DNA from: a virus
Lineage: Duplodnaviria; Caudoviricetes
Length of the DNA: 64,000 nucleotides
Reading direction: 5' to 3' (one strand)
Virus record (IMG/VR): IMGVR_UViG_3300048598_000287
Location: 128,001-192,000 of that record
Shown: in pieces, positions 1,070 through 50,477 of the stretch
Numbering within the stretch: position 1 is the first letter of the stretch
Layout of the letters: every line of letters begins with the position of its first letter
Notes under the pieces: generated by a model
Seen by the model: the letters and a program-made list of their open reading frames with translations, nothing else
Told to the model about the DNA's origin: nothing
The model's database searches: none
Position numbers and translations under genes: made by a program

Positions 1070-1870
1070 TTAATTAGACAAGTCGGTCATCATGTATGGG
1101 GGCGCTGATTCTTTCCGGAGATCTTCCATTTTTTTATCATACACCTCTTTCCATGTCGTATAAATAGTGGATCCGTTTACCGTTCCGCCGCCAGGAAGAG
1201 TGATCGTATCTTTCATCAGGATCAATCCGAGCTGCATTCCAGCCCTGGCCACCGCCATGTCCTGAAACAGCGGGTTTGCGAAAATCTCACTCTGCTTTTC
1301 TTTAAGATATACCCGAGCAATGGCATTGCGGTTGGACCTAGGAGTAGGATATATCCTCATCTTGTGCTCAACGGGGTGAAGCTTTATATTATATACGGTT
1401 CCTACGAGCTTCTTGACATCCTGCAAATACCTAAGTGCGCCTGAATACGTTATAAGATCAAACTGTCCTAGGCCTCCAAGACCGGCACCCCCGACACCCA
1501 TGAGGGATTCCCCTGGACCTACGTCCCATGCCATCATAGGAGAAAATGTATTCCCATAGCTAGGAACAAGATCAACCACAGCAAAGACGTTATCAGGAAC
1601 ACGGTATTCCACTATTCCTCGCTGAAGATGAATCACCATGTAATCATTATATGACGCTTCATCCTGATTATACCTGTAAAAATATGCCAGAGTATCATCT
1701 ATAGCCATGGCTATATGGCCTAGCCCGTTTCTATTTTCCACTTCCATCTCTATCTCAGTGGCCGGATATCCAAGACGGGCCTTTATTTTTTCCGCCATGT
1801 CATCTCTAGTCATGAACGTGCTGATTGTAGGAAGATCGAAATCTGATCTATTTTGCGATTCATTCATCAT
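1070..1870 (-). CDS. gp13: Neck / head-tail adaptor protein, T4 gp13-like
   Basis: IKARLGYPATEIE..AIDDTLAYF N-terminus and TLPGGGTVNG C-terminal motif as in gp13 homologues. Confidence 0.8.
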   Translation of the reverse strand: MMNESQNRSDFDLPTISTFMTRDDMAEKIKARLGYPATEIEMEVENRNGLGHIAMAIDDTLAYFYRYNQDEASYNDYMVIHLQRGIVEYRVPDNVFAVVDLVPSYGNTFSPMMAWDVGPGESLMGVGGAGLGGLGQFDLITYSGALRYLQDVKKLVGTVYNIKLHPVEHKMRIYPTPRSNRNAIARVYLKEKQSEIFANPLFQDMAVARAGMQLGLILMKDTITLPGGGTVNGSTIYTTWKEVYDKKMEDLRKESAPPYMMTDLSN

Positions 1871-2388
1871 GACCAGTCTCCCCCATGCGAATAAATATCC
1901 TGATCTCCGGTGTTTAACGTTATGCCAAAAAGATAATTTCCGGTCTTTTTAGATGTCACGTTTAGTCTTCCTTCTATTCCCCCACTGGGTATCTGCTTTA
2001 TAGATATTCCGAAATCATCAGTACTGTTTATCCGTTCATTGGTTACACGGTATACGGCAGGGGTATAATACATGTCCAGATTTGAAAGAATGAATTCTTT
2101 TAGTGCATCCTTACTTTCGAATTTGCGTATTCTCCCATTTATAAGTTCGTTATGAAACCAATATGTATATCTGTTAACTGTATGCGAAGCCTTTCGGTAT
2201 AGTTTCTCTATTCCACGGTAAGTAAAAAATTCATCCGGATATGCATCGATGTAATAGATGTAATTTGCCTCGCGATGATGAAAGCATTCCTCGAACAGCG
2301 CCGAAACCGCCGAAGATTGCGCTTCAGTAAGGCCAAGACGGTCTATTGAATCGTAGAAAAGAACGGCTTGTTCAAGGAATCCGGTCAT
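1867..2388 (-). CDS. Hypothetical protein carrying the shared N-terminal leader
   Basis: LFYDSIDRLGLTEAQSSAVSALFEECF; coupled to neighbours in a late operon. Confidence 0.7.
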   Translation of the reverse strand: MTGFLEQAVLFYDSIDRLGLTEAQSSAVSALFEECFHHREANYIYYIDAYPDEFFTYRGIEKLYRKASHTVNRYTYWFHNELINGRIRKFESKDALKEFILSNLDMYYTPAVYRVTNERINSTDDFGISIKQIPSGGIEGRLNVTSKKTGNYLFGITLNTGDQDIYSHGGDWS

Positions 2389-3008
2389 TAGCGGGCCTCG
2401 TCCTCGAAGAATCTGGCAAGATGATATTTTATGTTAGTAATTTCATCCAGCATGACATCTATGGAACTGTTAAGACCATACGTACGTTTATCGTCAAGCT
2501 TCTCCCTAAAATGAGTGAACTCTTCTAGATCCGAATGTATGGAAGCGGCGAAAGCATCGCGATCGGCGATGTCAACCACGCGTTTCCATAGATCCATGCT
2601 TATCTTCTCGTTGAACATGGATACATACGTTTCGGCGGTGCTGTCCCGCATTTTTCCGTATAGTTCATATGCCCGCTGGGAAAGTTCATGCAATGCCTTT
2701 GATTCTGCGTTCCAGTGATAATTCTGATATGAATTGCTCTTTGCTATAAGCAATTGCAGAACGGCTGTTATCAGCTGTTTGCAATCCGCATCATCGTTGA
2801 ATTTATCATCCGATAACTCGTCCGGATTTTTCCCTGGATTTTCTTCATGCGTTTCTTCAGAAGATTCTTCCTTGTCAGTTTCGGCAGCTACCGGCTTACC
2901 GGCAGCTTCATATATCGCTTTATGGATTTCAGAAACAGCCTGGATGGTGTTTCCATCTATACCTGCACGTTGTAATGATTCGGTAAAAATTTTATATGCG
3001 CTCTTCAT
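2388..3008 (-). CDS. Ferritin/Dps-like protein with the shared leader and an acidic linker
   Basis: YQNYHWN..LHELSQRAYE..RDSTAETY..LDEITNIKYHL pattern of phage Dps-like four-helix proteins; leader FTESLQRAGI..AVSEIHKAIYEAA. Confidence 0.7.
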   Translation of the reverse strand: MKSAYKIFTESLQRAGIDGNTIQAVSEIHKAIYEAAGKPVAAETDKEESSEETHEENPGKNPDELSDDKFNDDADCKQLITAVLQLLIAKSNSYQNYHWNAESKALHELSQRAYELYGKMRDSTAETYVSMFNEKISMDLWKRVVDIADRDAFAASIHSDLEEFTHFREKLDDKRTYGLNSSIDVMLDEITNIKYHLARFFEDEAR

Positions 3009-3034
3009 GTTATCCCTCGGATATCAACTATATC

Positions 3035-3043
3035 TAGTTTATA
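3035..3043 (-). promoter_or_regulatory. Putative late promoter TATAAACTA
   Basis: Recurrent motif about 27 nt upstream of the ATG at 3008. Confidence 0.7.
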
Positions 3044-3060
3044 TGGCGAGGGAAATGCTA

Positions 3061-4471: not shown

Positions 4472-4474
4472 TCA

Positions 4475-6034: not shown

Positions 6035-7180
6035 TCACGATGCGTCATAATCCATAATCATAGAAATTATTGATTTTTTTACTTCAATTCCCTCTATAAT
6101 GGGGGGAGGGGTCTCTGCATTTTCCATGAACTTTTCAGCCACCTCTAGTTGAGTCATTCTAGTTATCTTTTCCGCTTCGGTATTGTCCGATGGAATTGTA
6201 ACGGTATCCTCTGCAGATGCTTTAATGATTGATCCATATGGCACCGTCCGTACGAAAAGAGGGGCTTTATCGTTCAATTTAGCCCGGAGAACCGCGGAAT
6301 CTTCAGCGGTCTTCGTGCTGTCACAGAAATATCTTACAATGGTGTTTTCCAATTGAGGAAGCGCATCAAGATCATCATAATCATTGACATCGATGAACCG
6401 TTCGCCAATAGTGTTTTCTATAAATTCATATGACATATCCTGGTTGAATATGTAAAATCCCGGGGCGTTTCCCATATGCGCGGCGGACATCTGGTATGGA
6501 GTTCCTAGATACAATATCTTGCTACTTCCAATTTTAGTTATAGATTTACAATGATAATGCCCGCTTATGACATATCCGCAGCATTCGGCAATTTCTGCCG
6601 GATCGAATCCTTCTTTAGATATATTGCTGCCTTCCATATTCATTCCCATGATGTCGAAATGACCAAAGAATACATTTTTATCCGCATCCGCTTTATTTTT
6701 AGCGGACGCCTTCATCATAGCCATAGCAGTCTTTTTGGTTTCCTCGGTTCCTAACCAAGGAAATAAAATCCATTTCCATCCATCGAACACCGGATATTCC
6801 ATGGGGGACATCACTACAGTTACGTTAGGAATGAAGTTTAGCATTTCTATCCCGCATACCGAATCATTATTCTCATATAGCATATCATGATTTCCGGGGA
6901 TAATGACTATGGTGAAGTCTTTCATCTTGTTAGAAAACATTTGAATAGCATAATGAATATCTTCCACGGATAGAGATTGCCGGTTATCAAAGATATCCCC
7001 GGCAAATAGAACGGTATGTATGTTTCTCCGTTTTAGTTCAGCGATGGCAAAGTCAAAGAACCGGTCACGCATCGTATTATGATGGGCAGTAACTATTCCA
7101 TTATGGTAAAGCGTATAGCCAAGATGAATGTCGCCGAATACGCCTATCTTATTTTCAGTTGCCAAATTCTGTTGTATCAT
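6035..7180 (-). CDS. gp47: Recombination endonuclease subunit (Mre11/SbcD-like)
   Basis: GDIHLG, AGDIFDNR, GNHD, FGHF and SGHYH phosphoesterase motifs, plus YLGTPYQ. Confidence 0.9.
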   Translation of the reverse strand: MIQQNLATENKIGVFGDIHLGYTLYHNGIVTAHHNTMRDRFFDFAIAELKRRNIHTVLFAGDIFDNRQSLSVEDIHYAIQMFSNKMKDFTIVIIPGNHDMLYENNDSVCGIEMLNFIPNVTVVMSPMEYPVFDGWKWILFPWLGTEETKKTAMAMMKASAKNKADADKNVFFGHFDIMGMNMEGSNISKEGFDPAEIAECCGYVISGHYHCKSITKIGSSKILYLGTPYQMSAAHMGNAPGFYIFNQDMSYEFIENTIGERFIDVNDYDDLDALPQLENTIVRYFCDSTKTAEDSAVLRAKLNDKAPLFVRTVPYGSIIKASAEDTVTIPSDNTEAEKITRMTQLEVAEKFMENAETPPPIIEGIEVKKSIISMIMDYDAS

Positions 7181-8404: not shown

Positions 8405-8830
8405 TCATTTGACTGCCTGGCCAAGTCTATCGGTCATATCCCCTCCCCGACGCCGGTCAAATATTATCTGAGAATCATTAAACCCGTTCGTATATGTGTA
8501 TGATGATATTGCGACTGCGCATGCCGCTCCGTAAAACTGGTAGAATTCATCCGAGGAAGAAAATTTGCTCACCATCGTTTTGCCATAACGGTCAAAATAT
8601 GCCTGAAATTCATCTTTGGTTAGCGGTTGGCCATTGATTATTATTTTCTTTCCGGTATACATCAAAGTGCAGAAAATAGACATCAGCACAGACATGTCGC
8701 GGATGACTGATTGATTCACAGAAGGAAATGCCCTTGATAGGATAATGGTAAGCACATTTACCTTTTCCTTTCCAACCGCAGCCTCGCCTTCTGTATATAT
8801 GGAATTAAGCGCCTTATCATCTGTATGCAT
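8405..8830 (-). CDS. Hypothetical late protein
   Basis: Preceded by TATAAACTC at 8853-8861. Confidence 0.65.
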   Translation of the reverse strand: MHTDDKALNSIYTEGEAAVGKEKVNVLTIILSRAFPSVNQSVIRDMSVLMSIFCTLMYTGKKIIINGQPLTKDEFQAYFDRYGKTMVSKFSSSDEFYQFYGAACAVAISSYTYTNGFNDSQIIFDRRRGGDMTDRLGQAVK

Positions 8831-8860
8831 ATTACTATCCAGTAGTTTAATAGAGTTTAT

Positions 8861-8912
8861 ATAAGATTTGCGGAAGAAACCATCTGAACTTTAGCCAGGA
8901 AATGGGAATCCA
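8861..8912 (+). mobile_element. Degenerate IS200/IS605-like left-end remnant
   Basis: TTTAT then ATAAGATTTGCGGAAGAAA, an imperfect hairpin with a CTTTAG loop, then GAATCC; same start as copies at 22621, 42444, 45154 and 47671. Confidence 0.5.
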
Positions 8913-10562
8913 TTAATTTGACGCTTCAACCATTGCGCCAAGCTTGTGCTGTTCCTGCATTGCCTCTGGTGACTTTATGTAATCTATCGCATCCACATAT
9001 TTAGCCCTCATGTCATCGGTAAGACGTAGCTGCTCCTGCTCGGTAAGTATTTCGATTTCCTCATAATTACCATAATAGAACGTAGACTGCAGATAATATA
9101 TAGCCCAGTATAGCGCGGTCACGTGGTCATCATGCATTCCTCCGCTACCTCCCCATACATTGCTAGTCTTCTGCGTGAACGACATTAGTTCCATTATCGT
9201 CAATTTATCTTTTACCTGGATATATCCTCTCTGGACATACATTTTGAGAAGAACGACGACCTTGCTCTTCATAGTAGGCGTGGCCCAAAGCCCGCGGCAC
9301 ATATTATCAAAATTGATTATATTAGGATATTGGGCGACGGTAAAGAAATAGTTATACGCGCAGCTTCCCGGACCGTTGTATTCTATTATGAGATATGGAA
9401 ACTGATAAAAGCGCAACATGATGTTAGCTATATGGCAAAAGTCATTTATGCTTACCGTGTTGGAAGACATGGTAAATACCTGTTCGCATTTAATATTGCT
9501 TTTCGCGAGAAGTATGTGCAAAACATGAGAATCCTTTCGTATTCCGAACCCGGTATCAATAGATGCGACATATGAATATCCCCGCGATTCGACATTTTTC
9601 TCCGGCCATTTGAAGACGCGCATTGATATGTCGTTCGTTATTGACTTTAGATTCTCCGGCCATATAGATCCGTCAAACTTAAGAGGTTCCATCGCCTTAA
9701 GCTTTTCCAGACATCGGTAATCGATGAGCGTGATGCTGGATCCTATGAATTCGCATTCATATTCCTGGCGGAATCTCTGATCTCCGACCTTTTCTCGTTC
9801 TGCTGCTGCCCATTCTTCAGTATGGCTAGGCACCTGATTCCATATCACCGTGGATTTAATGTATCGGTTCTTTGCGCCATCCTTTTCGGCAACCTCTTCA
9901 TCGATGGCCTTGCACCACATGTCATAAAAATGGTTCATTCCCTTTGGGGTGGACGTTATGATACAACGGGTCGTGTTTCCGGACGATATGGCGGGAAACA
10001 CCGATGCCATGAATTCCTCGGCGAGGCCAGACCGTAGAATGGCGAACTCGTCAAGATATAGAAGATTGATAGCGAATCCGCGGATGTTATCCGGAGAGGA
10101 TGAGGATACTATTATTCTGCTGTTGTTTGACAGTTGAATGGATGTTTTGTTCCATAGTTTAACTCCGGGTTGAAGCCACATAGGGAGCTTACTATATGAG
10201 TCACGGAGCTGCTGCATCTGTTCCTTGGCAAGGGAAAGTTTGTTTCCTATCATGGCGACAAGCTGATCCTTATGGAAAATAACCCACCATAGGATAAATC
10301 CGCGCACTACGGTGGATTTTCCTACCTGTCTTGACCATTTGTTTATGTTGAACCTATATTTCAAGAACCTACGTATCGCACGTTCTTGAAAATCATATAG
10401 GGCGAATAGCTGAGATCCATGGTCCAGCGTATTTATATACACATAATGCCGGATGAAATATATCGGGTCAAGGGCGCATTTCTTAAGCTCCTTTAGCTGA
10501 GTCATGGTGACTCTGACAGGTTCGTTCGCGTCCCGTAATCCTAATATTCCGTTAAATGCCAT
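8913..10562 (-). CDS. terL: Terminase large subunit (T4 gp17-like)
   Basis: DPIYF, Walker A SRQVGKS, Walker B LLYLDEFA, ITSTPKG, FRQEYECEF, HDDHV nuclease motif. Confidence 0.95.
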   Translation of the reverse strand: MAFNGILGLRDANEPVRVTMTQLKELKKCALDPIYFIRHYVYINTLDHGSQLFALYDFQERAIRRFLKYRFNINKWSRQVGKSTVVRGFILWWVIFHKDQLVAMIGNKLSLAKEQMQQLRDSYSKLPMWLQPGVKLWNKTSIQLSNNSRIIVSSSSPDNIRGFAINLLYLDEFAILRSGLAEEFMASVFPAISSGNTTRCIITSTPKGMNHFYDMWCKAIDEEVAEKDGAKNRYIKSTVIWNQVPSHTEEWAAAEREKVGDQRFRQEYECEFIGSSITLIDYRCLEKLKAMEPLKFDGSIWPENLKSITNDISMRVFKWPEKNVESRGYSYVASIDTGFGIRKDSHVLHILLAKSNIKCEQVFTMSSNTVSINDFCHIANIMLRFYQFPYLIIEYNGPGSCAYNYFFTVAQYPNIINFDNMCRGLWATPTMKSKVVVLLKMYVQRGYIQVKDKLTIMELMSFTQKTSNVWGGSGGMHDDHVTALYWAIYYLQSTFYYGNYEEIEILTEQEQLRLTDDMRAKYVDAIDYIKSPEAMQEQHKLGAMVEASN

Positions 10563-10564
10563 TA

Positions 10565-12196
10565 CTATTTACCTAATATGTATTTGTTATATTCAGCTTG
10601 CGTCATGTTATGCGCAGCCAGAGTTCCGTTATGCAACTTATTAAGACGGCGTCTTTCATCCGCCTTCTGTTGCAGTGCGGATATTTCATTGTGTGAACAC
10701 TGGAATGCGTAATCAGCATCTTCCGGAGAAAGTTTTTCCTTCTCTCCTGTAGTCGGATCCTTATACCACCCTCTCACCAGCATCCCCTTGACCGAATCAT
10801 CTCCCGAATTATACCATTTAGTTATAGTATCCTTCCCGAAAGACTTTACAGATGCCTGTGCCGATTCGGATGATGCATCATTGGATTTGCCTGGATTTCC
10901 TACCGATTTTCCTGCGACCGCATTAGCTGACGATGCTGTTAATTCGTTACCATAATCCTGCTGCCCATGAGTAATATCGTCGCCTCCAACTGAACCCAAT
11001 TCGCCCAATCTTGACTGACCTCTGGTATTAGGATTCATCGCCCGTTCGGCATATATTTTCCTGTCTTCCGGAACCATCAGGAAAGCCGGGGCCGGCATAT
11101 ATTTCATATATTCACTGTTTGGATCAGATAGCATCTTTTTAAGAAGCGCCTTCCCGTTTTCATTCACTGGATTATAATTTAGATCAAGACCGGTGTTAGC
11201 CGAAAAATATTTTCCGAACAATTGTTTGTCTGTTATGGTTGAGTTTCTGTCAAATCCCATGCTTGCATAATATTTATCTTTATCGATAACTTTTCCTGAC
11301 TTATCCTCTCCTTCCATTCCTAGCTGCGTGGAACTTTTTGACGCAAGCGTGGATGCGTCACTGATTCTAAGCTTAGCGGCAAAATCAGGAAGGAAATAAG
11401 TAGTGTAATAATATGATTTAAATTCTTCAAGCATTTCTTGTTTGGCTTTTTCCGTGTTTATATAAAACAGATCGGAATGTTCATCCCAGTACGTTTCGAA
11501 CTTTTTCATGAACTCATCGTTAGCCTTCTTGTTTATTACCGTCTTTCCCTGAGAATCCATGCCAATTGAATAATTAAAATATTCCTTTGGGTGAGATTTG
11601 GCCAGCACAGGATCCGTTATGTTAAGCTCGGAATCAAACCCGTAATTATTCTGCAAAGACTCCTGGGAATCTCGGGAGCCAACTCCGGACGCCCCGAAAT
11701 TTATGGGAAACTGCGTTGCAATCGCGTCCAATTTATCAAGAAGCGTTCCGGACGTAGCATTCATTATTCCGATGGCTTTATCAGCCGATGAAGAGATACT
11801 GGCACTTCCAGGAAAATTTTTCGCCACTTTATTGCTTATTGCATTTTGCGCGGTCTCCATTGCTGCCTGTTCTTCGGCCGCCTTTCCATATTCTTCATGC
11901 ATTTTATAAATTCCCCTGGCCACATCAACTAATCCCCATGCGATAGACGCTATATATAACACGGCTCCAATTCCAGGCACTCCGATCACGGCGCTTTTCT
12001 TTCCTATGAAGCAGCCGAGAACCATCAGTCCGACGCCCATTCCCATATTAAGCACACCGTCTGCGCTTTCCAGTTCAGGTGACGAATATATTTCCTTATG
12101 CAGGCTAATTATCGTGCCAACTGAATCTGGATCAAGCCCGTAAATATCTTTAAGGGAATTTTCGAACAGTATGTATTTTTCATTGTTTGATAACAT
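10565..12196 (-). CDS. Leader-tagged protein with two predicted transmembrane helices
   Basis: LFENSLKDIYGL..TIISLHKEIY..LESA followed by a Gly-rich hydrophobic hairpin. Confidence 0.7.
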   Translation of the reverse strand: MLSNNEKYILFENSLKDIYGLDPDSVGTIISLHKEIYSSPELESADGVLNMGMGVGLMVLGCFIGKKSAVIGVPGIGAVLYIASIAWGLVDVARGIYKMHEEYGKAAEEQAAMETAQNAISNKVAKNFPGSASISSSADKAIGIMNATSGTLLDKLDAIATQFPINFGASGVGSRDSQESLQNNYGFDSELNITDPVLAKSHPKEYFNYSIGMDSQGKTVINKKANDEFMKKFETYWDEHSDLFYINTEKAKQEMLEEFKSYYYTTYFLPDFAAKLRISDASTLASKSSTQLGMEGEDKSGKVIDKDKYYASMGFDRNSTITDKQLFGKYFSANTGLDLNYNPVNENGKALLKKMLSDPNSEYMKYMPAPAFLMVPEDRKIYAERAMNPNTRGQSRLGELGSVGGDDITHGQQDYGNELTASSANAVAGKSVGNPGKSNDASSESAQASVKSFGKDTITKWYNSGDDSVKGMLVRGWYKDPTTGEKEKLSPEDADYAFQCSHNEISALQQKADERRRLNKLHNGTLAAHNMTQAEYNKYILGK

Positions 12197-13298
12197 TATT
12201 CACCCCTCCTTTAAGGCTTAGCACGTATTTCACGAATTCTGCTATGACGGTGGCGGAAACTCCAGTATTTTTTAACTTTCCATCAATTACGCCATATAAT
12301 ACATCCGCGGTTGATTTGACCTCTTCTGAAGCACCAGGAATCACGGAAGACAATGCAGCGGCGGCTTCCTGTGATAATCCTGACGATTTTCCTATTGTTC
12401 CCAGATGCAGCCATCTTGTTCCAACATATAGGCCTTGCCCGAATCCGCTGAATTCAGCATCGGGAGCATTTTTCATTTCTTCCGGAAGACTAACCGAGGT
12501 GTCATTCATTTTAAGAAGTTTGCTTCCGGCGCATTCTCCAACAAAAGAATTGAATTCCTTCACGCCGTTTTCATCATGGCACCACATGGCTGGGCAAAGC
12601 TTACCGGTCACATTATAATGCATGTATATGTTTTTTTCATCGATGGAATATTTATCCATAAGCCATCGTACCAGTTTCTTTGTGTTTTCTTTCACTGCAT
12701 CGGTGAAATTCCAGTCATGTTCTTCCGGCTGTGGATGATCCACCTTTTTGGTTTTAGAACTACACATTTCTATCGATATTGAATTTTTATTCATTATTTT
12801 TCCATACATCGCTGCAAATCCGGATGCTTTCGGATTAGCCATCGTTTGCTTCTCAGATCCCACGGCCATGGCTTCCATATTGGCGGGATCAGGATTATAT
12901 TGATAAATCTCACTGTCATCGACGATAAAATCAGCGGCAGTATGCTGAAGTTCTCCATTTTTATCATTAGGGCTTCCTTTTGCGAAAAATCCAGCGACAG
13001 ACAACGCTGCACCGCTTCCTGATGACTGACTTGCCGTGTAATGAAGAACTATATATGATATTTTCCTGTTTGGCGCCGAAATTATTCCACTTGCTGATTT
13101 GTCTGAATTTACCTTAACATTGAATTCATCCCCAGATGATGCCATTTTATTGTTTTCATTCTTATCGGATCCGGAAGCGGTTTTATTATCATCGTCTGAA
13201 GCCTCCATAAGAGATCGATAGATCGATACAATGGCAGATTTACGTATTCCATCTATTGATGGATTATTTTCAATCGATTCTACGAAGATGTCTTTCAT
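12180..13298 (-). CDS. N-acetylmuramoyl-L-alanine amidase (Amidase_2) with the shared leader
   Basis: YIVLHYTA, SISIEMC and HYNVTGKLCP zinc-ligand/catalytic motifs. Confidence 0.85.
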   Translation of the reverse strand: MKDIFVESIENNPSIDGIRKSAIVSIYRSLMEASDDDNKTASGSDKNENNKMASSGDEFNVKVNSDKSASGIISAPNRKISYIVLHYTASQSSGSGAALSVAGFFAKGSPNDKNGELQHTAADFIVDDSEIYQYNPDPANMEAMAVGSEKQTMANPKASGFAAMYGKIMNKNSISIEMCSSKTKKVDHPQPEEHDWNFTDAVKENTKKLVRWLMDKYSIDEKNIYMHYNVTGKLCPAMWCHDENGVKEFNSFVGECAGSKLLKMNDTSVSLPEEMKNAPDAEFSGFGQGLYVGTRWLHLGTIGKSSGLSQEAAAALSSVIPGASEEVKSTADVLYGVIDGKLKNTGVSATVIAEFVKYVLSLKGGVNNVIKQ

Positions 13299-13325: not shown

Positions 13326-13384
13326 TAGTTTATATAAGATTTGAGGGATGCTGAAGTTTTCTTCTGCGAATCTTATATAAACTA
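13326..13384. promoter_or_regulatory. Divergent pair of late promoters
   Basis: TAGTTTATA at 13326-13334 and TATAAACTA at 13376-13384, between divergent genes. Confidence 0.7.
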
Positions 13385-27421: not shown

Positions 27422-28705
27422 TTAAAGCTTGAACAGGGTCTGATTTGTTATCTGCTTACCATCTGTAACGAATAGATAGCTTGCCGCCGGATATGCGCTA
27501 TGAAGCGTAGCCATGCTATATTCACCCGGCCCAACTATGGATGGCTGGAATATGATCGGGATGTTCTTTCCGGCAAGGAACCATTCACCTCCGATATGCC
27601 AATGACCCATTATGCAGACGTCCGCCACCTTTCCAGTAGCAGAATATATCATAAAATCTTTGAAATTATCGCGGGATACTGTTCCAAGCGGAGAGCAGAA
27701 TGCAGCTCCGCCCTTGTAAGCATCGCCATGCTCTATTTTCCATGTCTGCTCACCTATGTTGGCGAAAAGAACAGGAGAATCAGAAACGGTAACACTGACA
27801 TTTTCGCTGGCGTCAAAGGCCTCTTTTATGAAACAATAAAGAATGTATTCATAATTATTATACCCTTTATTTTTAGACTGCCATTTCTTTGTAGTCCGGG
27901 AATGATTTCCGACTACGCAATACAAATTCACCTGCTTGAAGTTCTTTGAAATGGATTTAATCGCGCCGACGAAAAATTTGAAATAATCTATCATCATTCG
28001 TGTGATCGGTCCGGCATTAGTTTCTACAAGTTCATCATGAATGTTTCCAGAGAAAATATCACCTAAAACGGGTATGTCGAGGATTCCACAGTCATGCTCT
28101 TTAGCCATCTCCAATGCCTTGGTAAATAGCTTTACGTGACGTTCCTTGGAAATTTCAGGATTGTATGCGTTTATGTTATTAATGGCCAGAGGATCTATCA
28201 CTTCTCCATAGTGAACGTCGGCGATCGGCATGACAAGATGATGATCACCGGTATTCATTTTCGTTATATTTATTGAAAATGTGTCAAAGGATACCTTATG
28301 TATCTCGTCTTTAAGCTCGCTCGCTATTTCGGCAGCCACATAGGAATTTACCCGAAGCCTATCATTTTCAGCTCTAAGTCCGGAAACTTGTTTGCGCAAA
28401 TAGCGATTTTCATTTTCAGTGACGTCATTAACAATTTCATGGTCATATTCGGAAATAGACGCCTTACTGGTATTTTCGCCGGCATGTTGTTTTGAAATAT
28501 ATCCATTATACCGTACAAGCATCCTGGAAATTCGCTTATTAAACGCGCCTCTAGTCAATGAGAATCCGGAAGATTTAATTTCACCGGCATAATTGTCCAT
28601 GATTTTCTGTTTATTACATCCATATTTTTTGCATATTTCCAAGATGCATATCTGATCTTGAGTAAGGGATTTAATAAATCCGCTATCTGAAATTGATTGC
28701 GTCAT
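27422..28705 (-). CDS. Calcineurin-like metallophosphoesterase with an N-terminal helical region
   Basis: ADVHYGE, LGDIFSG, GNHSR, HGD and GHWH motifs. Confidence 0.8.
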   Translation of the reverse strand: MTQSISDSGFIKSLTQDQICILEICKKYGCNKQKIMDNYAGEIKSSGFSLTRGAFNKRISRMLVRYNGYISKQHAGENTSKASISEYDHEIVNDVTENENRYLRKQVSGLRAENDRLRVNSYVAAEIASELKDEIHKVSFDTFSINITKMNTGDHHLVMPIADVHYGEVIDPLAINNINAYNPEISKERHVKLFTKALEMAKEHDCGILDIPVLGDIFSGNIHDELVETNAGPITRMMIDYFKFFVGAIKSISKNFKQVNLYCVVGNHSRTTKKWQSKNKGYNNYEYILYCFIKEAFDASENVSVTVSDSPVLFANIGEQTWKIEHGDAYKGGAAFCSPLGTVSRDNFKDFMIYSATGKVADVCIMGHWHIGGEWFLAGKNIPIIFQPSIVGPGEYSMATLHSAYPAASYLFVTDGKQITNQTLFKL

Positions 28706-35555: not shown

Positions 35556-35595
35556 TAGTTTATATGGCCGGAATATTTCGCGGCGATATAAACTA
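35556..35595. promoter_or_regulatory. Divergent pair of late promoters
   Basis: TAGTTTATA at 35556-35564 and TATAAACTA at 35587-35595. Confidence 0.7.
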
Positions 35596-35621: not shown

Positions 35622-36056
35622 ATGACGTTCATCGATTTCATTCACGACAATGTATCAGACGAAAAATTCAAAAAGACCATCGATTCATTATACATCCTAT
35701 GGAAAGAATCTTACCCGGACTCTGACGTGCAAATGGAGGCGGATGACGGATCATCTACGGATACCAATGGTAATTCTGTAATTCCAGGAAATACTGCATC
35801 TACTTCAACTGAAGGTGCTAATACATCGGCAACTTCTTCTGATACAGACTGGAAAGGAGCGTTTAATCTTAATAATCTGGATGCGACTGCGGCAACTACA
35901 GTTGCCTCCCGGCTCAATGATATAGAAAAGGCAAAGGCTGATGCCGAAAAATATGCTGCATCAGCAAAGGACAATATTGACAAGCAATATGCAGAGGCGC
36001 AGAATCTGCTAAATGCATCCGCATCGTCAAAAAGCACTACGAATACCGTAGGGTGA
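35622..36056 (+). CDS. Small late protein with a leader variant
   Basis: MTFIDFIHD..KTIDSLYILWKES..QMEAD, then an S/T-rich linker and coiled coil. Confidence 0.7.
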   Translation: MTFIDFIHDNVSDEKFKKTIDSLYILWKESYPDSDVQMEADDGSSTDTNGNSVIPGNTASTSTEGANTSATSSDTDWKGAFNLNNLDATAATTVASRLNDIEKAKADAEKYAASAKDNIDKQYAEAQNLLNASASSKSTTNTVG

Positions 36057-36063: not shown

Positions 36064-36570
36064 ATGATGACATTTAAAGAACAATTACGAAAGATGCAGA
36101 ATTCTGATCCTGAGCTATATGAATCGATTTCATGCGCATATGCAAAAATATTGACTGAATCATCCGGAAATCAAGCTTCTCATAATTCGTCATCAAATGA
36201 TGACGACACTATAATGCAAAGCTCGACAAAAGGCGTAGAAAGCATAATGGATAAAATTCATTCCATGGTGGGAGTGAATGAGAAAAAGAAAGAAGGGGAA
36301 AAAATTCTAGATACATCCAACGATGATGTCGATACAGTAAAGCCAGATGAGGAACAGACTGCGGATCTAATGGGCAAATCGCCCGACGAATCGGCTAACT
36401 TATCTGATAATGCGCAAACTGCTTTAGATAATCTATTCGCAGATTCTTCAGCATCAGGCGAAAACAGGGAAGAATCCCAGGATGACTATGATCCATTCGC
36501 AGAAGGAGAATCTGAACTGTTTGGAGATTCTGACCAGAGTGAATCACAGGATAAATCGGACGCCGTTTGA
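36064..36570 (+). CDS. Acidic late protein with a leader variant
   Basis: MMTFKEQLRK..YESISCAYAKILTES; GAGG SD. Confidence 0.7.
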   Translation: MMTFKEQLRKMQNSDPELYESISCAYAKILTESSGNQASHNSSSNDDDTIMQSSTKGVESIMDKIHSMVGVNEKKKEGEKILDTSNDDVDTVKPDEEQTADLMGKSPDESANLSDNAQTALDNLFADSSASGENREESQDDYDPFAEGESELFGDSDQSESQDKSDAV

Positions 36571-44091: not shown

Positions 44092-45057
44092 CTATTTATT
44101 GTATGTATATCTTGATGAATCAAAATTAGTTTCTACTCCCAATGCGGCAAGCGCATCAAGAGCATGCAGAATCTTTCCTGGATAATCAAGAGACTCTACC
44201 ATGCTTGGATTGATCGATATGGCATCCTGACGGCTCATTTCTCCGTCGGCGACCGCTCTGTAAAGCATAGGAACACTCCATGATTTACCAAGTTTTGACG
44301 TTAATCCTATGCCTCCATTATAACATGCGAACGCATATCGTATATCCCCTTCGCTATGATTATCGCGTCCATCACTTAGCACGGCATTTGACCTATCAGT
44401 CGTATACATTATTCTCAAAAGATATGCCGCTGCAGCGGAAGCCGCCTGTTCTACATTTTCAGGATCGTTCATTTCAGCAGGGTTAAGTCCGAATTGCGTT
44501 GCATATTTCCGGGCGTCTATAAGCGCACTGTCGCCCATCTGAGCGATCCCCTTATATCCTCTAGGGTTATATGGAGCAGGATTGAAATTGCTTTCAACAA
44601 GCATAAGCGCGACAAGTTCAGCCTTTCCCACCTTATATTTATTTGTTACCTTTGCAACTCTATCTACCGCATCATATACACGTTTCACATATGCCGCATT
44701 AGAATCGGAATCATTTTGGCATTTATATTTTCCACAAAGATTATCCATTATGAATTTTCTTATCGCCGTCTCATCCTCGCTAGCCGGTCGTGTTATTTCC
44801 TGAGTCTGTTCCGCCGGACTAGTCTCATTATACAATGCAGCTGTAGGGAACAGGGTAGACATCCCGATGAGTCCTGCGGCGGCAAGCTGTTTTGCCCTTG
44901 GATGTGACTTAAGAAAACTGTCCTTATCATATAGTGAACGTATCCTATCGGAAATGCCATTTTCATATATTGCACTATATAGATTGCACACTGCCTCATA
45001 CTGCGCTTCTGATAGATTAAGCTTCCTTATGCTTTCAAACAATAATTCTTCGTTCAT
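44092..45057 (-). CDS. Lytic transglycosylase (SLT) with the shared leader
   Basis: LVESNFNP catalytic Glu, GIAQM and CYNGG motifs; leader LLFESIRKLNL..AVCNLYSAIYENG. Confidence 0.85.
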   Translation of the reverse strand: MNEELLFESIRKLNLSEAQYEAVCNLYSAIYENGISDRIRSLYDKDSFLKSHPRAKQLAAAGLIGMSTLFPTAALYNETSPAEQTQEITRPASEDETAIRKFIMDNLCGKYKCQNDSDSNAAYVKRVYDAVDRVAKVTNKYKVGKAELVALMLVESNFNPAPYNPRGYKGIAQMGDSALIDARKYATQFGLNPAEMNDPENVEQAASAAAAYLLRIMYTTDRSNAVLSDGRDNHSEGDIRYAFACYNGGIGLTSKLGKSWSVPMLYRAVADGEMSRQDAISINPSMVESLDYPGKILHALDALAALGVETNFDSSRYTYNK

Positions 45058-45083: not shown

Positions 45084-45162
45084 CAGTTTATATAAGATTT
45101 GTGGAATTCATCTCTCCGGACTAAAGTCCGGGTATATTCTTTTGTAAATCTTATATAAACTA
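45084..45162. promoter_or_regulatory. Divergent late promoters flanking an IS605-like left-end hairpin
   Basis: AGTTTATATAAGATTT inverted repeat around CCGGAC-TAAA-GTCCGG. Confidence 0.7.
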
Positions 45163-45185: not shown

Positions 45186-46745
45186 ATGAAACCCTTCTAT
45201 TATGTAAGGACAATAGAAAAAATCCTTATCGGATTAATAGACATGTTCAACAACATGTACGTCAATAAATATGACGATATGTCTAGAACTACATATTCAA
45301 GAAGTGTAAAGATACCTATAATAACGCATAATAACGCTAATTTTACGAATTTCTGGTCCATTACACAATACAAGCAGCTTACCGTACCATATCCAATAGG
45401 GGCAATCCGGTTTGTGTCGAACAGCATGGATTCAACTAACCGCCCTCAACCAGCATATGCGAGAGAGATATTCTCGACTTCCAAAGACAAATGGATACGG
45501 GACATACAGCCTACCCCATATGTGTTTAACTTCGAATTACAGTTTCTGGCAGACAATATATCAGATCTTTTCCAGATAAAAGAGAGCATAGAGCCATATT
45601 TCAATGAATACAGGACAATAGTAATAAAGGAATGGGACTTCGCCCCAGAAATTTCTAGACCGGTTGTCATCCATCTGTTAGGAAACACCACTGAATTAAC
45701 AGAGGAAATAACGGATGCCGATGCCGCGCAGCAGATATATAAAGTGTCATACAATCTAGTAGCATATGGGGTATACCATCGTCCTTATGAGCATCCCGAA
45801 ATGATAAAATATGCTGAAATGAACTTCAACATAAATGAGGATTTAATCCATCGTGAACAGATTCTTGTATATCCGAATGAAATAATAGAGCAGAAAAAAA
45901 AGCTATGGGAAACGGTATGCCCCACTATCAGGGACGGATATTCCATCCTGCATACGCTTTCAACTACGCTAATGGCAAAACAAAATTCCGAAGGTAATGA
46001 TTATTACGAAGATATTTCTTTGAAACAGCTTCTGCTATATGATAAATATATTAGTTCGACATATCATGAGGATCAGAAACAATGCGGGGATGCCTCTTAT
46101 GATGCTTCCGGACTGCCGGTATATACATATTGCGAATCAGTTGTGGATGACATAACCAAGCCTTCAGAGGTGCCATCATTCAATCTCCTTAAATTAAATT
46201 TTGACTATGATTCCGGAACTGAAGCTGACCTTAGCGGGTTCGGAAGGGATTTTGTAGCAGTCAATGATGATACCCGGGAATTCGTTCCTAGCATGGCTCC
46301 GGGAAATGGGCAGAAAATAACCGGTGGATACGCCGTAGGAGACGCCGTTGATTGGAGTAAGATTCTGAATTGGTTCGGAGATAACGCGTCAGGGGACGTG
46401 GAATCATCATATACATTCAAGGCGACACTACAGTTCGTGGAAGAATCGCCAGGGGATACTATTTTTCAGTATCTAAGTAATGATGAAGTCGCCCTTTCAG
46501 ACGGGACGACAATACCGGAAGGAGAAGTATTCTTCGACTGGGGAATGATGAATGGAAGACTGTATTTCACCTATCATACATCATCAAAATTCAAAACGTT
46601 TATCTCTGATGCGATTGATCCGAATAATCAGACGATATATTCTTTCTATTTCGCATTGTATAATAATGGAGACAATGGAATATTCGGGGTAAAGACTAAT
46701 CTGAGCGATACAATGATAGTGCTCAATACCATAGAAACTACTTAA
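45186..46745 (+). CDS. gp15: Tail sheath stabiliser/terminator (gp15-like) with a C-terminal extension
   Basis: TIEKILIGLIDMFNNMYV..KIPI..PTPYVFNFEL..QIKESIEPYF. Confidence 0.75.
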   Translation: MKPFYYVRTIEKILIGLIDMFNNMYVNKYDDMSRTTYSRSVKIPIITHNNANFTNFWSITQYKQLTVPYPIGAIRFVSNSMDSTNRPQPAYAREIFSTSKDKWIRDIQPTPYVFNFELQFLADNISDLFQIKESIEPYFNEYRTIVIKEWDFAPEISRPVVIHLLGNTTELTEEITDADAAQQIYKVSYNLVAYGVYHRPYEHPEMIKYAEMNFNINEDLIHREQILVYPNEIIEQKKKLWETVCPTIRDGYSILHTLSTTLMAKQNSEGNDYYEDISLKQLLLYDKYISSTYHEDQKQCGDASYDASGLPVYTYCESVVDDITKPSEVPSFNLLKLNFDYDSGTEADLSGFGRDFVAVNDDTREFVPSMAPGNGQKITGGYAVGDAVDWSKILNWFGDNASGDVESSYTFKATLQFVEESPGDTIFQYLSNDEVALSDGTTIPEGEVFFDWGMMNGRLYFTYHTSSKFKTFISDAIDPNNQTIYSFYFALYNNGDNGIFGVKTNLSDTMIVLNTIETT

Positions 46746-46761: not shown

Positions 46762-47133
46762 ATGCGTTTGCCATTCAATTCGTATATATGTAAGCTTGAC
46801 ATGCCCAATGAATTGCAACATGCCGTGATAGATCTGCGCAAACTATGCATGGAATCGGAAGATACAAAACAGTTATCGGAAGAAATTACTTCTGAAGAAA
46901 GCGCAATGATTAACGCAATAGGAAGAGACATTGTACGGAAAGTGACTGAATATATGAATGAACATGCGGAAAGCTTAGCCGATGTGGAGAAATACATGAA
47001 TACGCTATTCAATGAAAGATCTGGCGAGCTGAAGAAAAACTCAGCAAAAGGCGATAAATATGTCGATATGCTCAAGAATTCATTATGCAGTTTTCTTAAA
47101 ACGGCAGGCATAAATCCTGATCTTATAAACTAG
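46762..47133 (+). CDS. Leader-tagged hypothetical protein
   Basis: PFNSYICKLDMP..AVIDLRKLCMES; GGAGG SD. Confidence 0.75.
   Translation: MRLPFNSYICKLDMPNELQHAVIDLRKLCMESEDTKQLSEEITSEESAMINAIGRDIVRKVTEYMNEHAESLADVEKYMNTLFNERSGELKKNSAKGDKYVDMLKNSLCSFLKTAGINPDLIN
47124..47132 (+). promoter_or_regulatory. Putative late promoter TATAAACTA
   Basis: Overlaps the upstream stop codon, about 24 nt before ATG 47156. Confidence 0.65.
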
Positions 47134-47155
47134 ATATATCATAACATCAGGTGAA

Positions 47156-47605
47156 ATGATGAAGGAACTATTCGAATCTTATATAGGTAAGCTTACCATA
47201 CCGGAAACGCTAAAACAGTCAATCATAGACATACATAAAATATGTCTTGAAGCAGAGGAACTTACTCCGGAAGACGAGCAAAAAATGACTGACGTGCCCG
47301 CACCCGGGGACAATTCAGAGGATCCTGCAAAACCGATACGTGATGTGGGAAATCAAATAGTAAATGATGTCAATACCGCTTTTGTAAACCATAAAGGAAA
47401 CGAAGATTTTGATTATAAAACCGCAATCATTGATTCAGTAAAAAGTAAAAAACCCAAAATAGACGAATGTTTAAAACTAAACAAAAACGCATTGACGGCA
47501 ATAGCGACAATAATAGACCGGCAGACTAAGCAGATGGCTGGAGGAAACCGAGTTACATTGGATGAACTTACAAATGCGCTTGGATATCAGCAAAGTAAAG
47601 AATAA
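47156..47605 (+). CDS. Leader-tagged hypothetical protein
   Basis: LFESYIGKLTIP..SIIDIHKICLEA. Confidence 0.75.
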   Translation: MMKELFESYIGKLTIPETLKQSIIDIHKICLEAEELTPEDEQKMTDVPAPGDNSEDPAKPIRDVGNQIVNDVNTAFVNHKGNEDFDYKTAIIDSVKSKKPKIDECLKLNKNALTAIATIIDRQTKQMAGGNRVTLDELTNALGYQQSKE

Positions 47606-47619
47606 TTTACATAATTTAA

Positions 47620-47679
47620 TGAATCGCCACTGAGTTAGTTATATTCAGTGGAATACCTTCACAAATCTTATATAAACTA
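47620..47679. promoter_or_regulatory. Late promoter (47671-47679, +) with an adjacent left-end-like hairpin
   Basis: CCACTGA..TCAGTGG stem followed by ACAAATCTTATATAAACTAG. Confidence 0.65.
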
Positions 47680-47708
47680 GTATCAGATATATGTCTTACG
47701 GGTACATA

Positions 47709-49802
47709 ATGGGCTCCATATTTGAACATTCAATCAATAACCTTGGTATTCCTGAATATTTAAAAACCGCAGTTAAAACCATACGCAAAATATGTATGGA
47801 AGCCGAAGAAGCATCCGGAAATAGTAAAGAATTGGCAAAACAAGAAGAAACACTGCTAAATAATATAAAAAACGTAGTCGTGAATGGAAGCGATCTAAAT
47901 CAATATAATAAAGCAAAAAAAGAATTAATTGACTTTTATACTAAGACAGGAAATCATACAGCAATTAATGCGTATAATACCAATGTAGAAGCAAAGAAAA
48001 CTAATAAAGATATAGAAACCGCATTAAATTCAATGATTTATTCTGCTAGATCAGCGCAGTCAGAAAATATGCAGACCGCACCTGCTACGGCATATTCAAA
48101 TAATAAGACCGGAATAATCGTTTCGACAATAAACGGAAATAAAATAACTGTATATCCGAACGGAACCTCGTATATAAATGGCAATGAAACCGATAAGGCA
48201 ACGGCAACAAAAGCATTGGTGAATGCAGTTAAAATGGCTAATATAAATAAGGCAAAGGCAAAGATGCCCGCATTGGATGAAAACGGAACTCTTCCGGCAG
48301 GTGACCAGTTCATCTATATAAAGGGAGAAAAAATATTCACATCCATTCCATCAGATAAGCAGAAATGGAATAATGTAAAATCTGCGTCAGACGCATATAT
48401 GGCAGAAATGGATAACATCATAACGCCGGCTAAATATGCATTGACTTATCTAGGAGAGGCCAATGCTATTCCTGCAGAAGTTGCACAGACTTCCGCAGGA
48501 GAACCATCAGCGCAGTCAAAGGAGAATAATAAGGTAACTAATCAGAAACCCGATGTAGTAAACCCCGCATCCGGAAAATCAACGAATGCAGCCCAGCCTA
48601 AAAAGGAAATGCGTGAAAATAAATATTCTCCGGTGCAAGTAAAGATGGTGCAGATGCTTCTTAATAATGACAAGTATCATAATTTCCTAGATACTGATGG
48701 AATTATAGGAGAAAACACCTCTGGTGCAGTAGAATTTGCTAAAAATCTAGATGCCGACGGTAAATTCGGTCCTAAAACCGATGCCGCATTCAAGGAACTG
48801 CTCAAAGAAGCTACCGATTTGGTTAAAAATAAGCAGTCCGATCTTAACAAAAATAATAAAGCCGGGATAAAAGAAGATGGGCTGCTTGGTCAAGATACCA
48901 TAAATGCGCTTAAAAAAGCTGGAATAAATGATCCGCAGACCATATTCGGAATAAATCCTGACGCTACGGAAAAAGATGAAACTAAGGAAGAAGATAAATC
49001 TGTGAATGTAGGTAATCCATCGGCGAAAGACTGGCGGCATTCTGAAGAAGCTAAAGCCCATAAAGTTGAAACTGATTTTCTGAATAGTGTTCCTAACACT
49101 ATATCTGCTATGTCCGCCGACAACTCAGTAAAGGAAGACCTTAAAAAGAAATACTCAGCCGCGTTAATTACATTGAGAAACAATATAAGTGCAACTGTAA
49201 AAGAGGAGTCAACACCAGAAATTGCTGCCGGACAGATTCTATATTATCTAAATAGTGGAGTAAAAGGCGGACTATCGTATGAACAGATGTATGACCAGCT
49301 CAAAGAAGATCATATATTAGGTAAATACGTAAGCTCAGGAACAAAGGATCTGAAGAAGAGTCTTCTCCAGCTGACCGATATATGTGAAAAAATAAATCCC
49401 AAAAATGAGCCAGTAGAAGATTCACGAAACCGAGCGGCTGAATCAGTGAACGGGCAGCATGCAAATAGTGCAGAGCCAACCAAAGCATCCGGAGAAAAGG
49501 CAAAAAATCTAGCAAATAGATCATGGGGAGATTTCTTCGAACATCCAGAAAAATATCCAAAAGACTATGCAGGGAAAATAAAGACTGCCACCGAAATGTT
49601 TGCCAAAGATGCCGATTCTAACACAAATGGAACGGATTATACGAAAAGCGCATTAGAATATGCCACAAATAACATGTCATTCAGACGCCCTGACGGAACT
49701 ATTTCATATATGGGAATATCCAATGATGAGCAAACTGCTAGAAGTCAGTTCATTGATGACATGAATGCCATTGTTAAATCTTCTGCCAACGGGGTTAAAT
49801 AA
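47709..49802 (+). CDS. Leader-tagged protein with peptidoglycan-binding (PG_binding_1) repeats
   Basis: Start likely MGSIFEHS by leader alignment (ORF track starts at 47691); three DGxxGxxT motifs. Confidence 0.75.
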   Translation: MGSIFEHSINNLGIPEYLKTAVKTIRKICMEAEEASGNSKELAKQEETLLNNIKNVVVNGSDLNQYNKAKKELIDFYTKTGNHTAINAYNTNVEAKKTNKDIETALNSMIYSARSAQSENMQTAPATAYSNNKTGIIVSTINGNKITVYPNGTSYINGNETDKATATKALVNAVKMANINKAKAKMPALDENGTLPAGDQFIYIKGEKIFTSIPSDKQKWNNVKSASDAYMAEMDNIITPAKYALTYLGEANAIPAEVAQTSAGEPSAQSKENNKVTNQKPDVVNPASGKSTNAAQPKKEMRENKYSPVQVKMVQMLLNNDKYHNFLDTDGIIGENTSGAVEFAKNLDADGKFGPKTDAAFKELLKEATDLVKNKQSDLNKNNKAGIKEDGLLGQDTINALKKAGINDPQTIFGINPDATEKDETKEEDKSVNVGNPSAKDWRHSEEAKAHKVETDFLNSVPNTISAMSADNSVKEDLKKKYSAALITLRNNISATVKEESTPEIAAGQILYYLNSGVKGGLSYEQMYDQLKEDHILGKYVSSGTKDLKKSLLQLTDICEKINPKNEPVEDSRNRAAESVNGQHANSAEPTKASGEKAKNLANRSWGDFFEHPEKYPKDYAGKIKTATEMFAKDADSNTNGTDYTKSALEYATNNMSFRRPDGTISYMGISNDEQTARSQFIDDMNAIVKSSANGVK

Positions 49803-50477
49803 ATGGCATCGATGTTCGATACATATGTGTCTAAACTAGATATGCCGAAGTATTTTCTGGAATCAGTGATATGCCTTAGAAAAATATGCATGGAGGCTGA
49901 TGATGTAGTTCAGTCAGACACGGGTGGAAAAGTAGTGCAAAATAAATCAGCATCAACTACTAATGATATCCCAAGAAAGGCTTCCGGAAAACCGGAACAG
50001 CCAGTTAAATCAGGAAATGAACCATCCACCGCTACAGTAAATTCTGACATAAAGACTTCAGGCAATGTAGAAACTACACCGGAAAATCAAAAGGAAACCC
50101 AGGCAGCAGATAAAGATTCTACGGCTGGAAAGGAACCATCAGATAAAAATGCCGAAGATAAAGATAAAAAGTCAGGCGATAATATAATAACAGCAGATAA
50201 ACTAGATGGAGACAAATTGCTAACGATGTTCAATCAATTTGCCGGCGCACGGCAGGCTGACGTTAACAAAGCACTTATGCAGGCATGCGGAGATCAGAAT
50301 GCAAAAACTATAATAGAGCATGCAAAAAGCTATCAAAAGTCGCATGAACCGATCGATGTTAATCAACAATTCAGTCCATGGATGAAAACTGGAGATGGAA
50401 AACAGCTTGATAAACAAGAAGCCATCCATCTTATTACCAATATACTTAAATATTATGGATTAAAATCAACTAAATGA
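49803..50477 (+). CDS. Leader-tagged hypothetical protein
   Basis: MFDTYVSKLDMP..SVICLRKICMEA, then a disordered linker and helical domain. Confidence 0.75.
   Translation: MASMFDTYVSKLDMPKYFLESVICLRKICMEADDVVQSDTGGKVVQNKSASTTNDIPRKASGKPEQPVKSGNEPSTATVNSDIKTSGNVETTPENQKETQAADKDSTAGKEPSDKNAEDKDKKSGDNIITADKLDGDKLLTMFNQFAGARQADVNKALMQACGDQNAKTIIEHAKSYQKSHEPIDVNQQFSPWMKTGDGKQLDKQEAIHLITNILKYYGLKSTK

Follow-up and report, generated by a model that had tools for sequence, protein, structure and literature searches.

A 64,000-nucleotide stretch of phage DNA (hereafter, the window), comprising bases 128001-192000 of the 277,197-base IMG/VR virus record IMGVR_UViG_3300048598_000287 (rated 66% complete), contains a series of genes whose products begin with a recurrent N-terminal leader of about 30 residues. 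The gene content of the window is mixed, combining DNA-metabolism genes (an SbcCD-like nuclease, a Dda-like helicase, and HNH) with late genes that encode the large terminase, a gp3-like sheath stabiliser, and a gp25-like baseplate wedge. Eleven open reading frames (ORFs) were named in an original prediction as bearers of a common leader that addresses unrelated cargo proteins to the capsid. All 11 were found, at the positions listed below, and their N-termini can be aligned over ~30 residues.

Membership was assessed by a hold-out test, in which each ORF was scored with a profile of 44-45 leaders (from this genome and a relative) that left out the tested ORF and its orthologue. E-values were computed against all 1660 ORFs of the genome, and 20 shuffled proteomes served as the control. 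The genes are given here with their hold-out E-values, the nucleotides that encode the leader core, and the aligned leader end, in which a slash marks the junction.

1867-2388 (-): leader protein of 173 residues, second gene of the late unit that starts at 3008; E 5.5e-6; core 2272-2361; end ..CFHHRE/A
2388-3008 (-): leader protein of 206 residues; E 3.5e-6; core 2901-2990; end ..AIYE/A; leader, acidic linker, and a weakly ferritin/Dps-like C-terminal part
10565-12196 (-): leader protein of 543 residues; E 8.7e-4; core 12077-12169; no Glu at the aligned position, end ..EIYSSPELE/S; hydrophobic, transmembrane (TM)-like segments at residues 46-93, by hydropathy
12180-13298 (-): leader protein of 372 residues; own hold-out score weak, E 0.62; core 13197-13289; end ..SLME/A; leader, Ser/Asp/Asn-rich linker, and an N-acetylmuramoyl-L-alanine amidase domain at residues 77-237 (Amidase_2, 6.1e-18)
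35622-36056 (+): doubtful member of 144 residues; N-terminus with the general pattern (..ILWKE/S), undetected by the hold-out profile
36064-36570 (+): leader protein of 168 residues; own E weak, 0.44; core 36070-36162; end ..KILTE/S; body very acidic (27% D+E)
44092-45057 (-): leader protein of 321 residues; E 5.8e-11; core 44956-45045; end ..AIYE/N; leader, hydrophobic stretch, and a lytic transglycosylase (SLT) domain at residues 136-255 (3.1e-10); matches phrog_342, 'internal virion protein with endolysin domain' (1.3e-4)
46762-47133 (+): leader protein of 123 residues; E 8.1e-5; core 46771-46860; end ..LCME/S
47156-47605 (+): leader protein of 149 residues; E 3.9e-10; core 47168-47257; end ..ICLE/A
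47691-49802 (+): leader protein of 703 residues (697 from 47709); E 1.8e-8; core 47718-47807; end ..ICME/A; peptidoglycan (PG)-binding domain at about residues 316-363 (PG_binding_3, 9.6e-7)
49803-50477 (+): leader protein of 224 residues; E 5.3e-7; core 49812-49901; end ..ICME/A

The leader family in this genome and its relatives

The hold-out E-values of eight window ORFs ranged from 8.7e-4 down to 5.8e-11, and the leader alignment of these eight is significant against the shuffled proteomes, whose best scores were 4.3-11.2 bits. Two further ORFs, 12180-13298 and 36064-36570, scored ~7 bits each, within the shuffled range, and are joined to the family only via their orthologues in a relative with a 422-kb genome, which match the leader profile with E-values of 1.7e-5 and 0.013, respectively. 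The claim that all 11 ORFs have the leader in common does not extend to 35622-36056, which escaped the hold-out profile and whose orthologue in the 422-kb relative reached E 0.25. The exact residue pattern first put forward for the leader proved too narrow, fitting only three ORFs, with the remaining ones satisfying 5-13 of its 13 fixed positions. The leader consensus is roughly (L/I)-F-E-S-(I/V)-x-K-L-G-L-x-x-x-Q-x-E-A-V-x-x-L-x-K-x-C-(F/L/M)-E-(A/S).

A profile search of the genome revealed eight extra members beyond the window, bringing the family to 19. The expectation that such a scan would return N-terminal hits only was borne out for 18 of the 19, the leader being C-terminal in one ORF of 79 residues. 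The members outside the window, all found by this search, are as follows.

Genome 252416-253387: leader protein of 323 residues
Elsewhere in the genome: leader proteins of 84, 125, and 602 residues
Immediately after the capsid gene: leader protein of 435 residues with an HExxH motif
Adjoining the gene of the 435-residue HExxH protein: leader Nudix hydrolase of 193 residues (NUDIX, 7e-10)
Genome 266599-267303, immediately upstream of the prohead protease gene: leader protein of 234 residues
Genome 100332-100571, behind the promoter-like motif TATAAACTA: 79-residue ORF with a small domain of ~52 residues, a complete C-terminal leader, and a stop

The orthologue of the 79-residue ORF in the 422-kb relative has 593 residues, with an N-terminal domain that is 79% identical and a leader at residues 267-294, and the 79-residue copy may be a truncated remnant. 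Because an N-terminal domain followed by the leader is seen in this ORF, in its orthologue, and in four database proteins, the leader is not strictly N-terminal.

Relatives of the capsid protein are numerous in IMG/VR. They include two complete genomes with terminal repeats (422,150 and 419,423 bases, both at 88% capsid identity), the first of which encodes ~27 leader-bearing ORFs, while the second gave 16 matches. In a relative with 68% capsid identity, three proteins were found to have a diverged leader and two orthologues a leader-like N-terminus, and a seed profile of this lineage-specific leader recovered no additional members there. Another recurrent N-terminal module was observed in the 68%-capsid-identity relative G003, in which eight ORFs in two clusters (~48955-52780 and 280117-283059) have the near-identical N-terminus METFRxGTFETNSSS and differing bodies.

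Searching 1.84 billion representative proteins with the leader profile returned 48 matches at E<=0.001, of which 40 are near-full-length and in the same register, and 36 of these 40 begin by residue 31. All leader members whose records were looked up are metagenomic. No match to the leader region was obtained in Pfam or PHROGs at E<=0.01, the sole overlap being sub-threshold (Acetyltransf_11, E 0.022), and the top match of the leader profile among PDB sequences, barstar at E 0.15, was dismissed as noise. Nucleotide and protein searches of the phage collection with the window genes gave no close match, and a locus search with the 703-residue leader protein alone as query recovered no relatives. 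The leader DNA of different members is at most 62% identical (median 37%), which rules out recent gene conversion among leaders and indicates that their divergence is old. The most similar leaders are those of the four tandem genes at 46762-50477.

Leader anatomy, junction, and cargo

AlphaFold2 modeling of an alignment of 40 leaders, with the leader of 47156-47605 as the reference sequence, predicted two helices, a short one at residues 2-7 and a long one at 13-31, joined by a loop (8-12), with a mean predicted local distance difference test score (pLDDT) of 93. The two-helix character that had been ascribed to the leader thus agrees with a predicted helix-loop-helix. The same two helices are repeated in the full-length model of the 234-residue protein (model pLDDT 67). 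The leader is amphipathic and charged.

At the junction, where helix 2 ends, 31 of 46 leaders have a Glu at the aligned position. The P3 residue is C/I/L/V/T in 42 of the 46, P2 is F/L/Y/M, and P1' is mostly Ala or Ser. The leader end resembles the L/I-x-Glu logic of T4 gp21, as given in PMC9026906, and may be a cut site of the phage's own protease. When 24 orthologues of the protease-adjacent protein were aligned, all proved to have the Glu-Ala that comes after the leader, including one without most of the leader and the copy of the present genome, which has a five-residue insert ahead of the Glu-Ala.

When these proteins are compared with those of the 422-kb relative, the leader shows the highest average conservation, with 45% identity versus 29% over the next 40 residues and 33% over the rest. 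As wholes, the leader proteins are 26-58% identical between the two phages (the Nudix hydrolase excepted, at 77%), while the capsid proteins are 88% identical, which points to fast evolution of the presumed payload.

Similarity stops after the leader, as had been proposed: blastp comparisons of all member pairs revealed no match past the leader at E<=0.01. The cargo types named at the outset were recovered for the amidase, SLT, PG-binding, TM, and acidic proteins, whereas the Dps-like call for 2388-3008 is weakly supported, by a weak ferritin match (PDB 3kwo, E 0.012) and by DUF5856 at E 0.02, below the cut-off. The database members add many PG-binding proteins, SLT, and one beta-helix protein, and the 422-kb relative adds a SPOR domain.

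Two Nudix genes (genome 201716-202297 and 203159-203608), whose products are 47% identical, are separated by 860 nt, and only one of the two encodes the leader. The same pair is present in the 422-kb relative, and it suggests that one copy is packaged and the other expressed during infection. A leaderless amidase is also encoded by the 422-kb relative. Because leaderless Nudix and amidase paralogues exist, the leader is a fused, detachable module and not the relic of a diverged family.

For the 435-residue HExxH protein, ESM Atlas gave only sub-threshold leads to LPD-type domains (scores <=0.86). The 234-residue protease-adjacent protein had no Foldseek match against the PDB at or below E 0.28, and no match in searches of PDB sequences, Pfam, or PHROGs. 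It has a beta-rich core that is predicted well and a C-x-C...C-x-H pattern, SWIM-like by eye, that is invariant; it is absent from the protease-adjacent position in relatives at 64-70% capsid identity.

Head genes and the late promoter-like motif

The head genes of this phage are of T4 type. The major capsid protein matches Pfam Gp23 (E 7.7e-65), and the portal gene (Portal_T4, 3.8e-67) lies immediately upstream of the capsid gene. A gp21-type prohead protease of 240 residues is encoded at genome 267640-268362 (Peptidase_S77, PF03420, matched at 267727-268176; E 2e-15, 54 bits, above the cut-off); it is ~23-35% identical to annotated T4-like gp21 prohead proteases, with matches in 2415 phage records. 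The protease gene is followed by that of a 316-residue scaffold-like protein (genome 268364-269314), which is acidic and coiled-coil. One leader protein is encoded directly before the protease and scaffold genes, and two more after the portal and capsid genes.

The annotated gene order of the T4-like genome MZ170041 is portal, prohead core protein, 'capsid and scaffold', two genes for a 'prohead assembly (scaffolding) protein', and major capsid protein; the first of the two 'prohead assembly (scaffolding) protein' genes is the one matched by the protease query. By T4 gene order, the five genes after the portal gene presumably correspond to gp67, gp68, the gp21 protease, gp22, and gp23. The 234-residue leader protein thus holds, relative to the protease, the gp67/gp68 position of a T4-like phage. 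Homology of the leader to T4-like gp22 or gp67, considered because of a resemblance seen by eye, is unsupported, since the scores of hidden Markov model comparisons were non-significant. A window scan of the leader against scaffold was likewise set aside, as it yielded a z of ~3.3 only, in helical Glu-rich proteins.

The motif TATAAACTA occurs 11 times in the window (1.0 expected) and 39 times in the genome, and lies 5-80 nt upstream of 29 of 311 genes, frequently as CAAATCTTATATAAACTA. The T4 late promoter is TATAAATA. Because the motif resembles this promoter, and because of the kind of genes that it precedes, the motif and its genes are taken to be late. It is found directly before 9 of the 19 leader genes, a tenth being preceded by TATAAACTG, and eight others are located further downstream in such units. 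The assignment of all 11 window ORFs to late-motif units holds for 10 of them with the exact TATAAACTA, whereas 44092-45057 lies behind TATAAACTG. The motif also precedes the operon that encodes a 926-residue protein, a leader protein, the protease, and the scaffold, and it is found ~250 nt ahead of the start of the longest portal ORF, which the capsid gene follows. The motif copies associated with the window genes discussed here are as follows.

3035-3043 (-): TATAAACTA promoter-like motif, just upstream of the start at 3008
13326-13334 (-): TATAAACTA motif in the extended form CAAATCTTATATAAACT, upstream of the start at 13298
35587-35595 (+): TATAAACTA motif, upstream of 35622
45084-45092 (-): one-base variant TATAAACTG with the extended upstream part CAAATCTTA, before the start at 45057
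45154-45162 (+): TATAAACTA motif, before the gp3-like tail sheath stabiliser gene 45186-46745
47124-47132 (+): TATAAACTA motif, before 47156
47671-47679 (+): TATAAACTA motif, before 47691/47709

The spacing from the last of these copies favours 47709 over 47691 as the start of the 703-residue ORF. A longer conserved form of the motif, CAAATCTTATATAAACT, is more specific than the 9-mer and occurs at 8854-8870, 13327-13343, and 45085-45101 on the (-) strand and at 47662-47678 on the (+) strand; it precedes several leader genes and a gene for a 141-residue protein at 8405-8830.

Among the neighbouring genes, leader gene 46762 comes after the gp3-like tail sheath stabiliser gene. The late unit 8913-13298 (-) consists of the leader-amidase gene, the gene of the leader-TM protein and, third, the gene of the terminase large subunit (8913-10562, (-); phrog_5989, 1.3e-56). 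The genes of the SbcD-like and SbcC-like nuclease subunits (gp47/gp46 type by PHROG), at 6035-7180 and 58622-60910 (-), are more than 50 kb apart and non-adjacent, and an additional exonuclease gene is located at 27422-28705.

A candidate head-loading tag and its alternatives

In phage T4, a capsid-targeting sequence (CTS) directs internal proteins to the interior of the scaffolding core, after which it is removed (PMC3012670, PMC9026906). Its bearers IPI, IPII, IPIII, and Alt are diverse outside the CTS, and the removal is carried out by the gp21 prohead protease (PMC3012670, PMC9026906). The leader described here shares with the T4 CTS that it is an N-terminal tag common to otherwise unrelated, fast-evolving proteins, that it mostly ends in a cut-site-like hydrophobic-x-Glu, and that it is detachable. 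The phage in turn shares with T4 a gp21-type S77 protease, a T4-type capsid and portal, and genes behind a T4-late-like promoter motif. The two tags differ in length and structure, the T4 CTS consisting of 10 residues and the leader of ~30 with a predicted helix-loop-helix, and the T4 CTS, MKTYQEFI(A/T)E, has no sequence similarity to the leader. They also differ in number and in cargo: two ORFs of MZ170041 begin with the 10-residue CTS (MKTYQEFITE and MKTYKEFIKE), compared with ~19 to 27 leader bearers per genome here, and the leader has cell-wall enzymes and a membrane protein among its cargo. In addition, some copies of the leader are internal.

It is probable, at roughly 0.7, that the leader is an extended, structured counterpart of the T4 CTS propeptide, which brings a payload of enzymes and envelope-breaching proteins into the prohead and is then removed by a cut after its Glu. 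By binding some component of the prohead core or shell during assembly, the leader would cause the cargo to be enclosed; the S77 protease would cut after the Glu of the leader; and the freed cargo would remain in the head and exit with the DNA. The cargo would comprise SLT, amidase, PG-binding, membrane-spanning, Nudix hydrolase, HExxH, ferritin-like, and acidic proteins. Since much of this set is envelope-active, it suggests a packaged cell-wall-breaching kit, by analogy with the ejection proteins of T7 or SPN3US. The predictions of the capsid-addressing idea that could be followed at the sequence level held, namely the S77 protease, the near-always N-terminal position, the cut-site-like hydrophobic-x-Glu end of most leaders, detachability, head-gene neighbours and the promoter motif, and the two helices. 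The sequences show the family, where the leader sits in the proteins, its modular nature and end motif, and the genes and promoter-like motifs around it; packaging, cleavage, and delivery at infection are inferred.

Several observations weigh against this interpretation. The aligned Glu is absent from 15 of the 46 leaders, most of which have a Glu 1-5 residues later. No similarity between the leader and the T4 CTS could be detected, the leader profile finding nothing at E<=10 in a T4-like genome, and the profile match to a scaffold propeptide that had been thought possible did not materialize, as hhalign gave a probability of 0.6% for the leader versus the scaffold of the clade (seven orthologues). 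The relative at 68% capsid identity has only the few, diverged leader versions noted above, and no leader matches were found in two further relatives at 64-68% capsid identity. Four of the 40 near-full-length database matches are internal, at residues 81-167 behind an N-terminal domain of ~52 residues, to which the internal leader of the 593-residue orthologue and the C-terminal leader of the 79-residue ORF must be added. Much of the cargo acts on the cell wall, which fits a tail- or baseplate-associated location as well. Finally, packaging and cleavage are deduced for proteins whose relatives are all metagenomic.

Longer propeptides are known from giant phages. In SPN3US, phiKZ, and 201phi2-1, the propeptides of ejection or inner-body proteins are cut after Glu by a gp21-related protease (PMC5694885, PMC9026906). 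These propeptides are longer than that of T4 and probably similar in function, and that of SPN3US gp47 is followed by a TM segment (PMC5694885). Propeptides of the SPN3US type are mostly 80-130 residues long, and the paralogues gp53 and gp54 have an identical 15-residue N-terminus (PMC5694885, PMC9026906). The present phage resembles SPN3US and phiKZ in being a jumbo phage with many proposed head-internal proteins and with candidate propeptides longer than that of T4, and the leader-TM arrangement of 10565-12196 recalls gp47. It differs in that the papers cited report a shared N-terminus solely for gp53/gp54, in contrast to one compact leader on ~20 to 27 proteins here, and in that its gene set is T4-type and not phiKZ-type.

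The T7 internal core (ejection) protein gp16 offers a further parallel, being head-internal and having an SLT-type domain, and 44092-45057 matches phrog_342; this match (1.3e-4) is weak, however, and confined to the SLT domain. We know of no shared cleavable leader on T7 core proteins and, to our knowledge, T7 is without a prohead protease. Encapsulin cargo-loading peptides and the helix-turn-helix coat-binding domain of the P22 scaffolding protein are likewise short portable modules that bring a protein into an HK97-fold shell. They differ in being C-terminal, not removed by a protease, and unrelated in sequence, and the analogy is one of mechanism only.

The main rival explanation, which is unlikely, is that the leader serves assembly or anchoring in another part of the virion, such as the tail-tube lumen, the baseplate hub, or the neck, or else stays in the head as an anchor that is never cleaved. 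The cell wall or membrane is the target of several cargoes (SLT, Amidase_2, PG-binding, and the TM protein), four leader genes come after the gp3-like tail sheath stabiliser gene, and the 15 leaders without the aligned Glu would be accommodated; in relatives of SPN3US, moreover, some such regions stay unremoved (PMC5694885). This explanation is countered by the junction motif, which is invariant in the 24 orthologues and fits a Glu-specific protease, by the location of leader genes next to the protease/scaffold and portal/capsid genes, and by cargo that would act in the cytoplasm, such as Nudix. For T4-type tail assembly, we know of no shared tag, which also counts against it.

It is quite unlikely that the members are old paralogues in which the shared N-terminus is the domain that stayed conserved while the bodies diverged or were swapped, with a role of this domain in oligomerisation, chaperone docking, or regulation instead of localisation. 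The closest leaders do occur in the four tandem genes 46762-50477, as tandem duplication would give, and the low DNA identity of the leaders is in keeping with an old divergence. Module fusion nevertheless provides a better explanation than divergence, because the domains behind the leader are independent Pfam domains (Amidase_2, SLT, NUDIX, and PG_binding), two of which also have leaderless paralogues. Common descent of this kind would also leave the conserved Glu-Ala/Ser end, the link to head genes, and the late motif unexplained.

A role as an export or membrane-targeting signal, serving envelope-acting proteins late in infection as part of lysis, would suit the peptidoglycan hydrolases and PG-binding domains among the cargo. 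It is very improbable for a leader that is amphipathic and charged, the only hydrophobic windows being those of the 10565-12196 product, behind its leader; the leader is found on Nudix, acidic, and head-module proteins as well, and the separate leaderless amidase of the 422-kb relative is more likely the endolysin. Chance or compositional similarity of helical N-termini, with which the individual scores of 35622, 36064, and 12180 in the shuffled range would agree, is already refuted for the core of the family by the eight hold-out E-values, the N-terminal leader of 18 of 19 members, the ~27 members in the relative, and the 40 database proteins that match in the same register.

If the leader is taken to be a CTS-like propeptide, a wider picture can be drawn, tentatively and with the balance somewhat against it. 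In this clade from gut, rumen, and sewage, the T4-type jumbo phages might fill their heads with ~27 proteins by means of a folded helix-loop-helix cargo-loading domain, and not a short peptide, and this domain might also function internally. The payload might combine a full set of proteins for breaching the envelope (transglycosylase, amidase, PG-binding, and membrane proteins) with enzymes that duplicate cytoplasmic copies (Nudix). An ejectosome like that of T7 or phiKZ would thereby have arisen in a contractile-tailed relative of T4 by expansion of the CTS. In the literature that was searched, expanded leader families of this sort were not described for uncultured phages.

The use of such a tag for packaging is not new, its principle and its engineering being already known from T4. 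Fusions to the CTS package GFP, nucleases, and other proteins (PMC3012670, PMC9026906), and protein packaging by the 10-residue T4 CTS has been in use since the 1990s (PMC9026906). For head loading, a structured tag of 30 residues whose cut site is defined could be used in place of the CTS, within a principle that is already exploited. If the leader is a head-loading tag, scanning for it would list the proteins that a large uncultured phage probably carries into the cell, no proteome being needed. Judging by such a list, the phage would package a kit for the cell wall and membrane that is absent from T4 itself, and some enzymes, as with the Nudix pair, would be supplied both by the virion and by expression.

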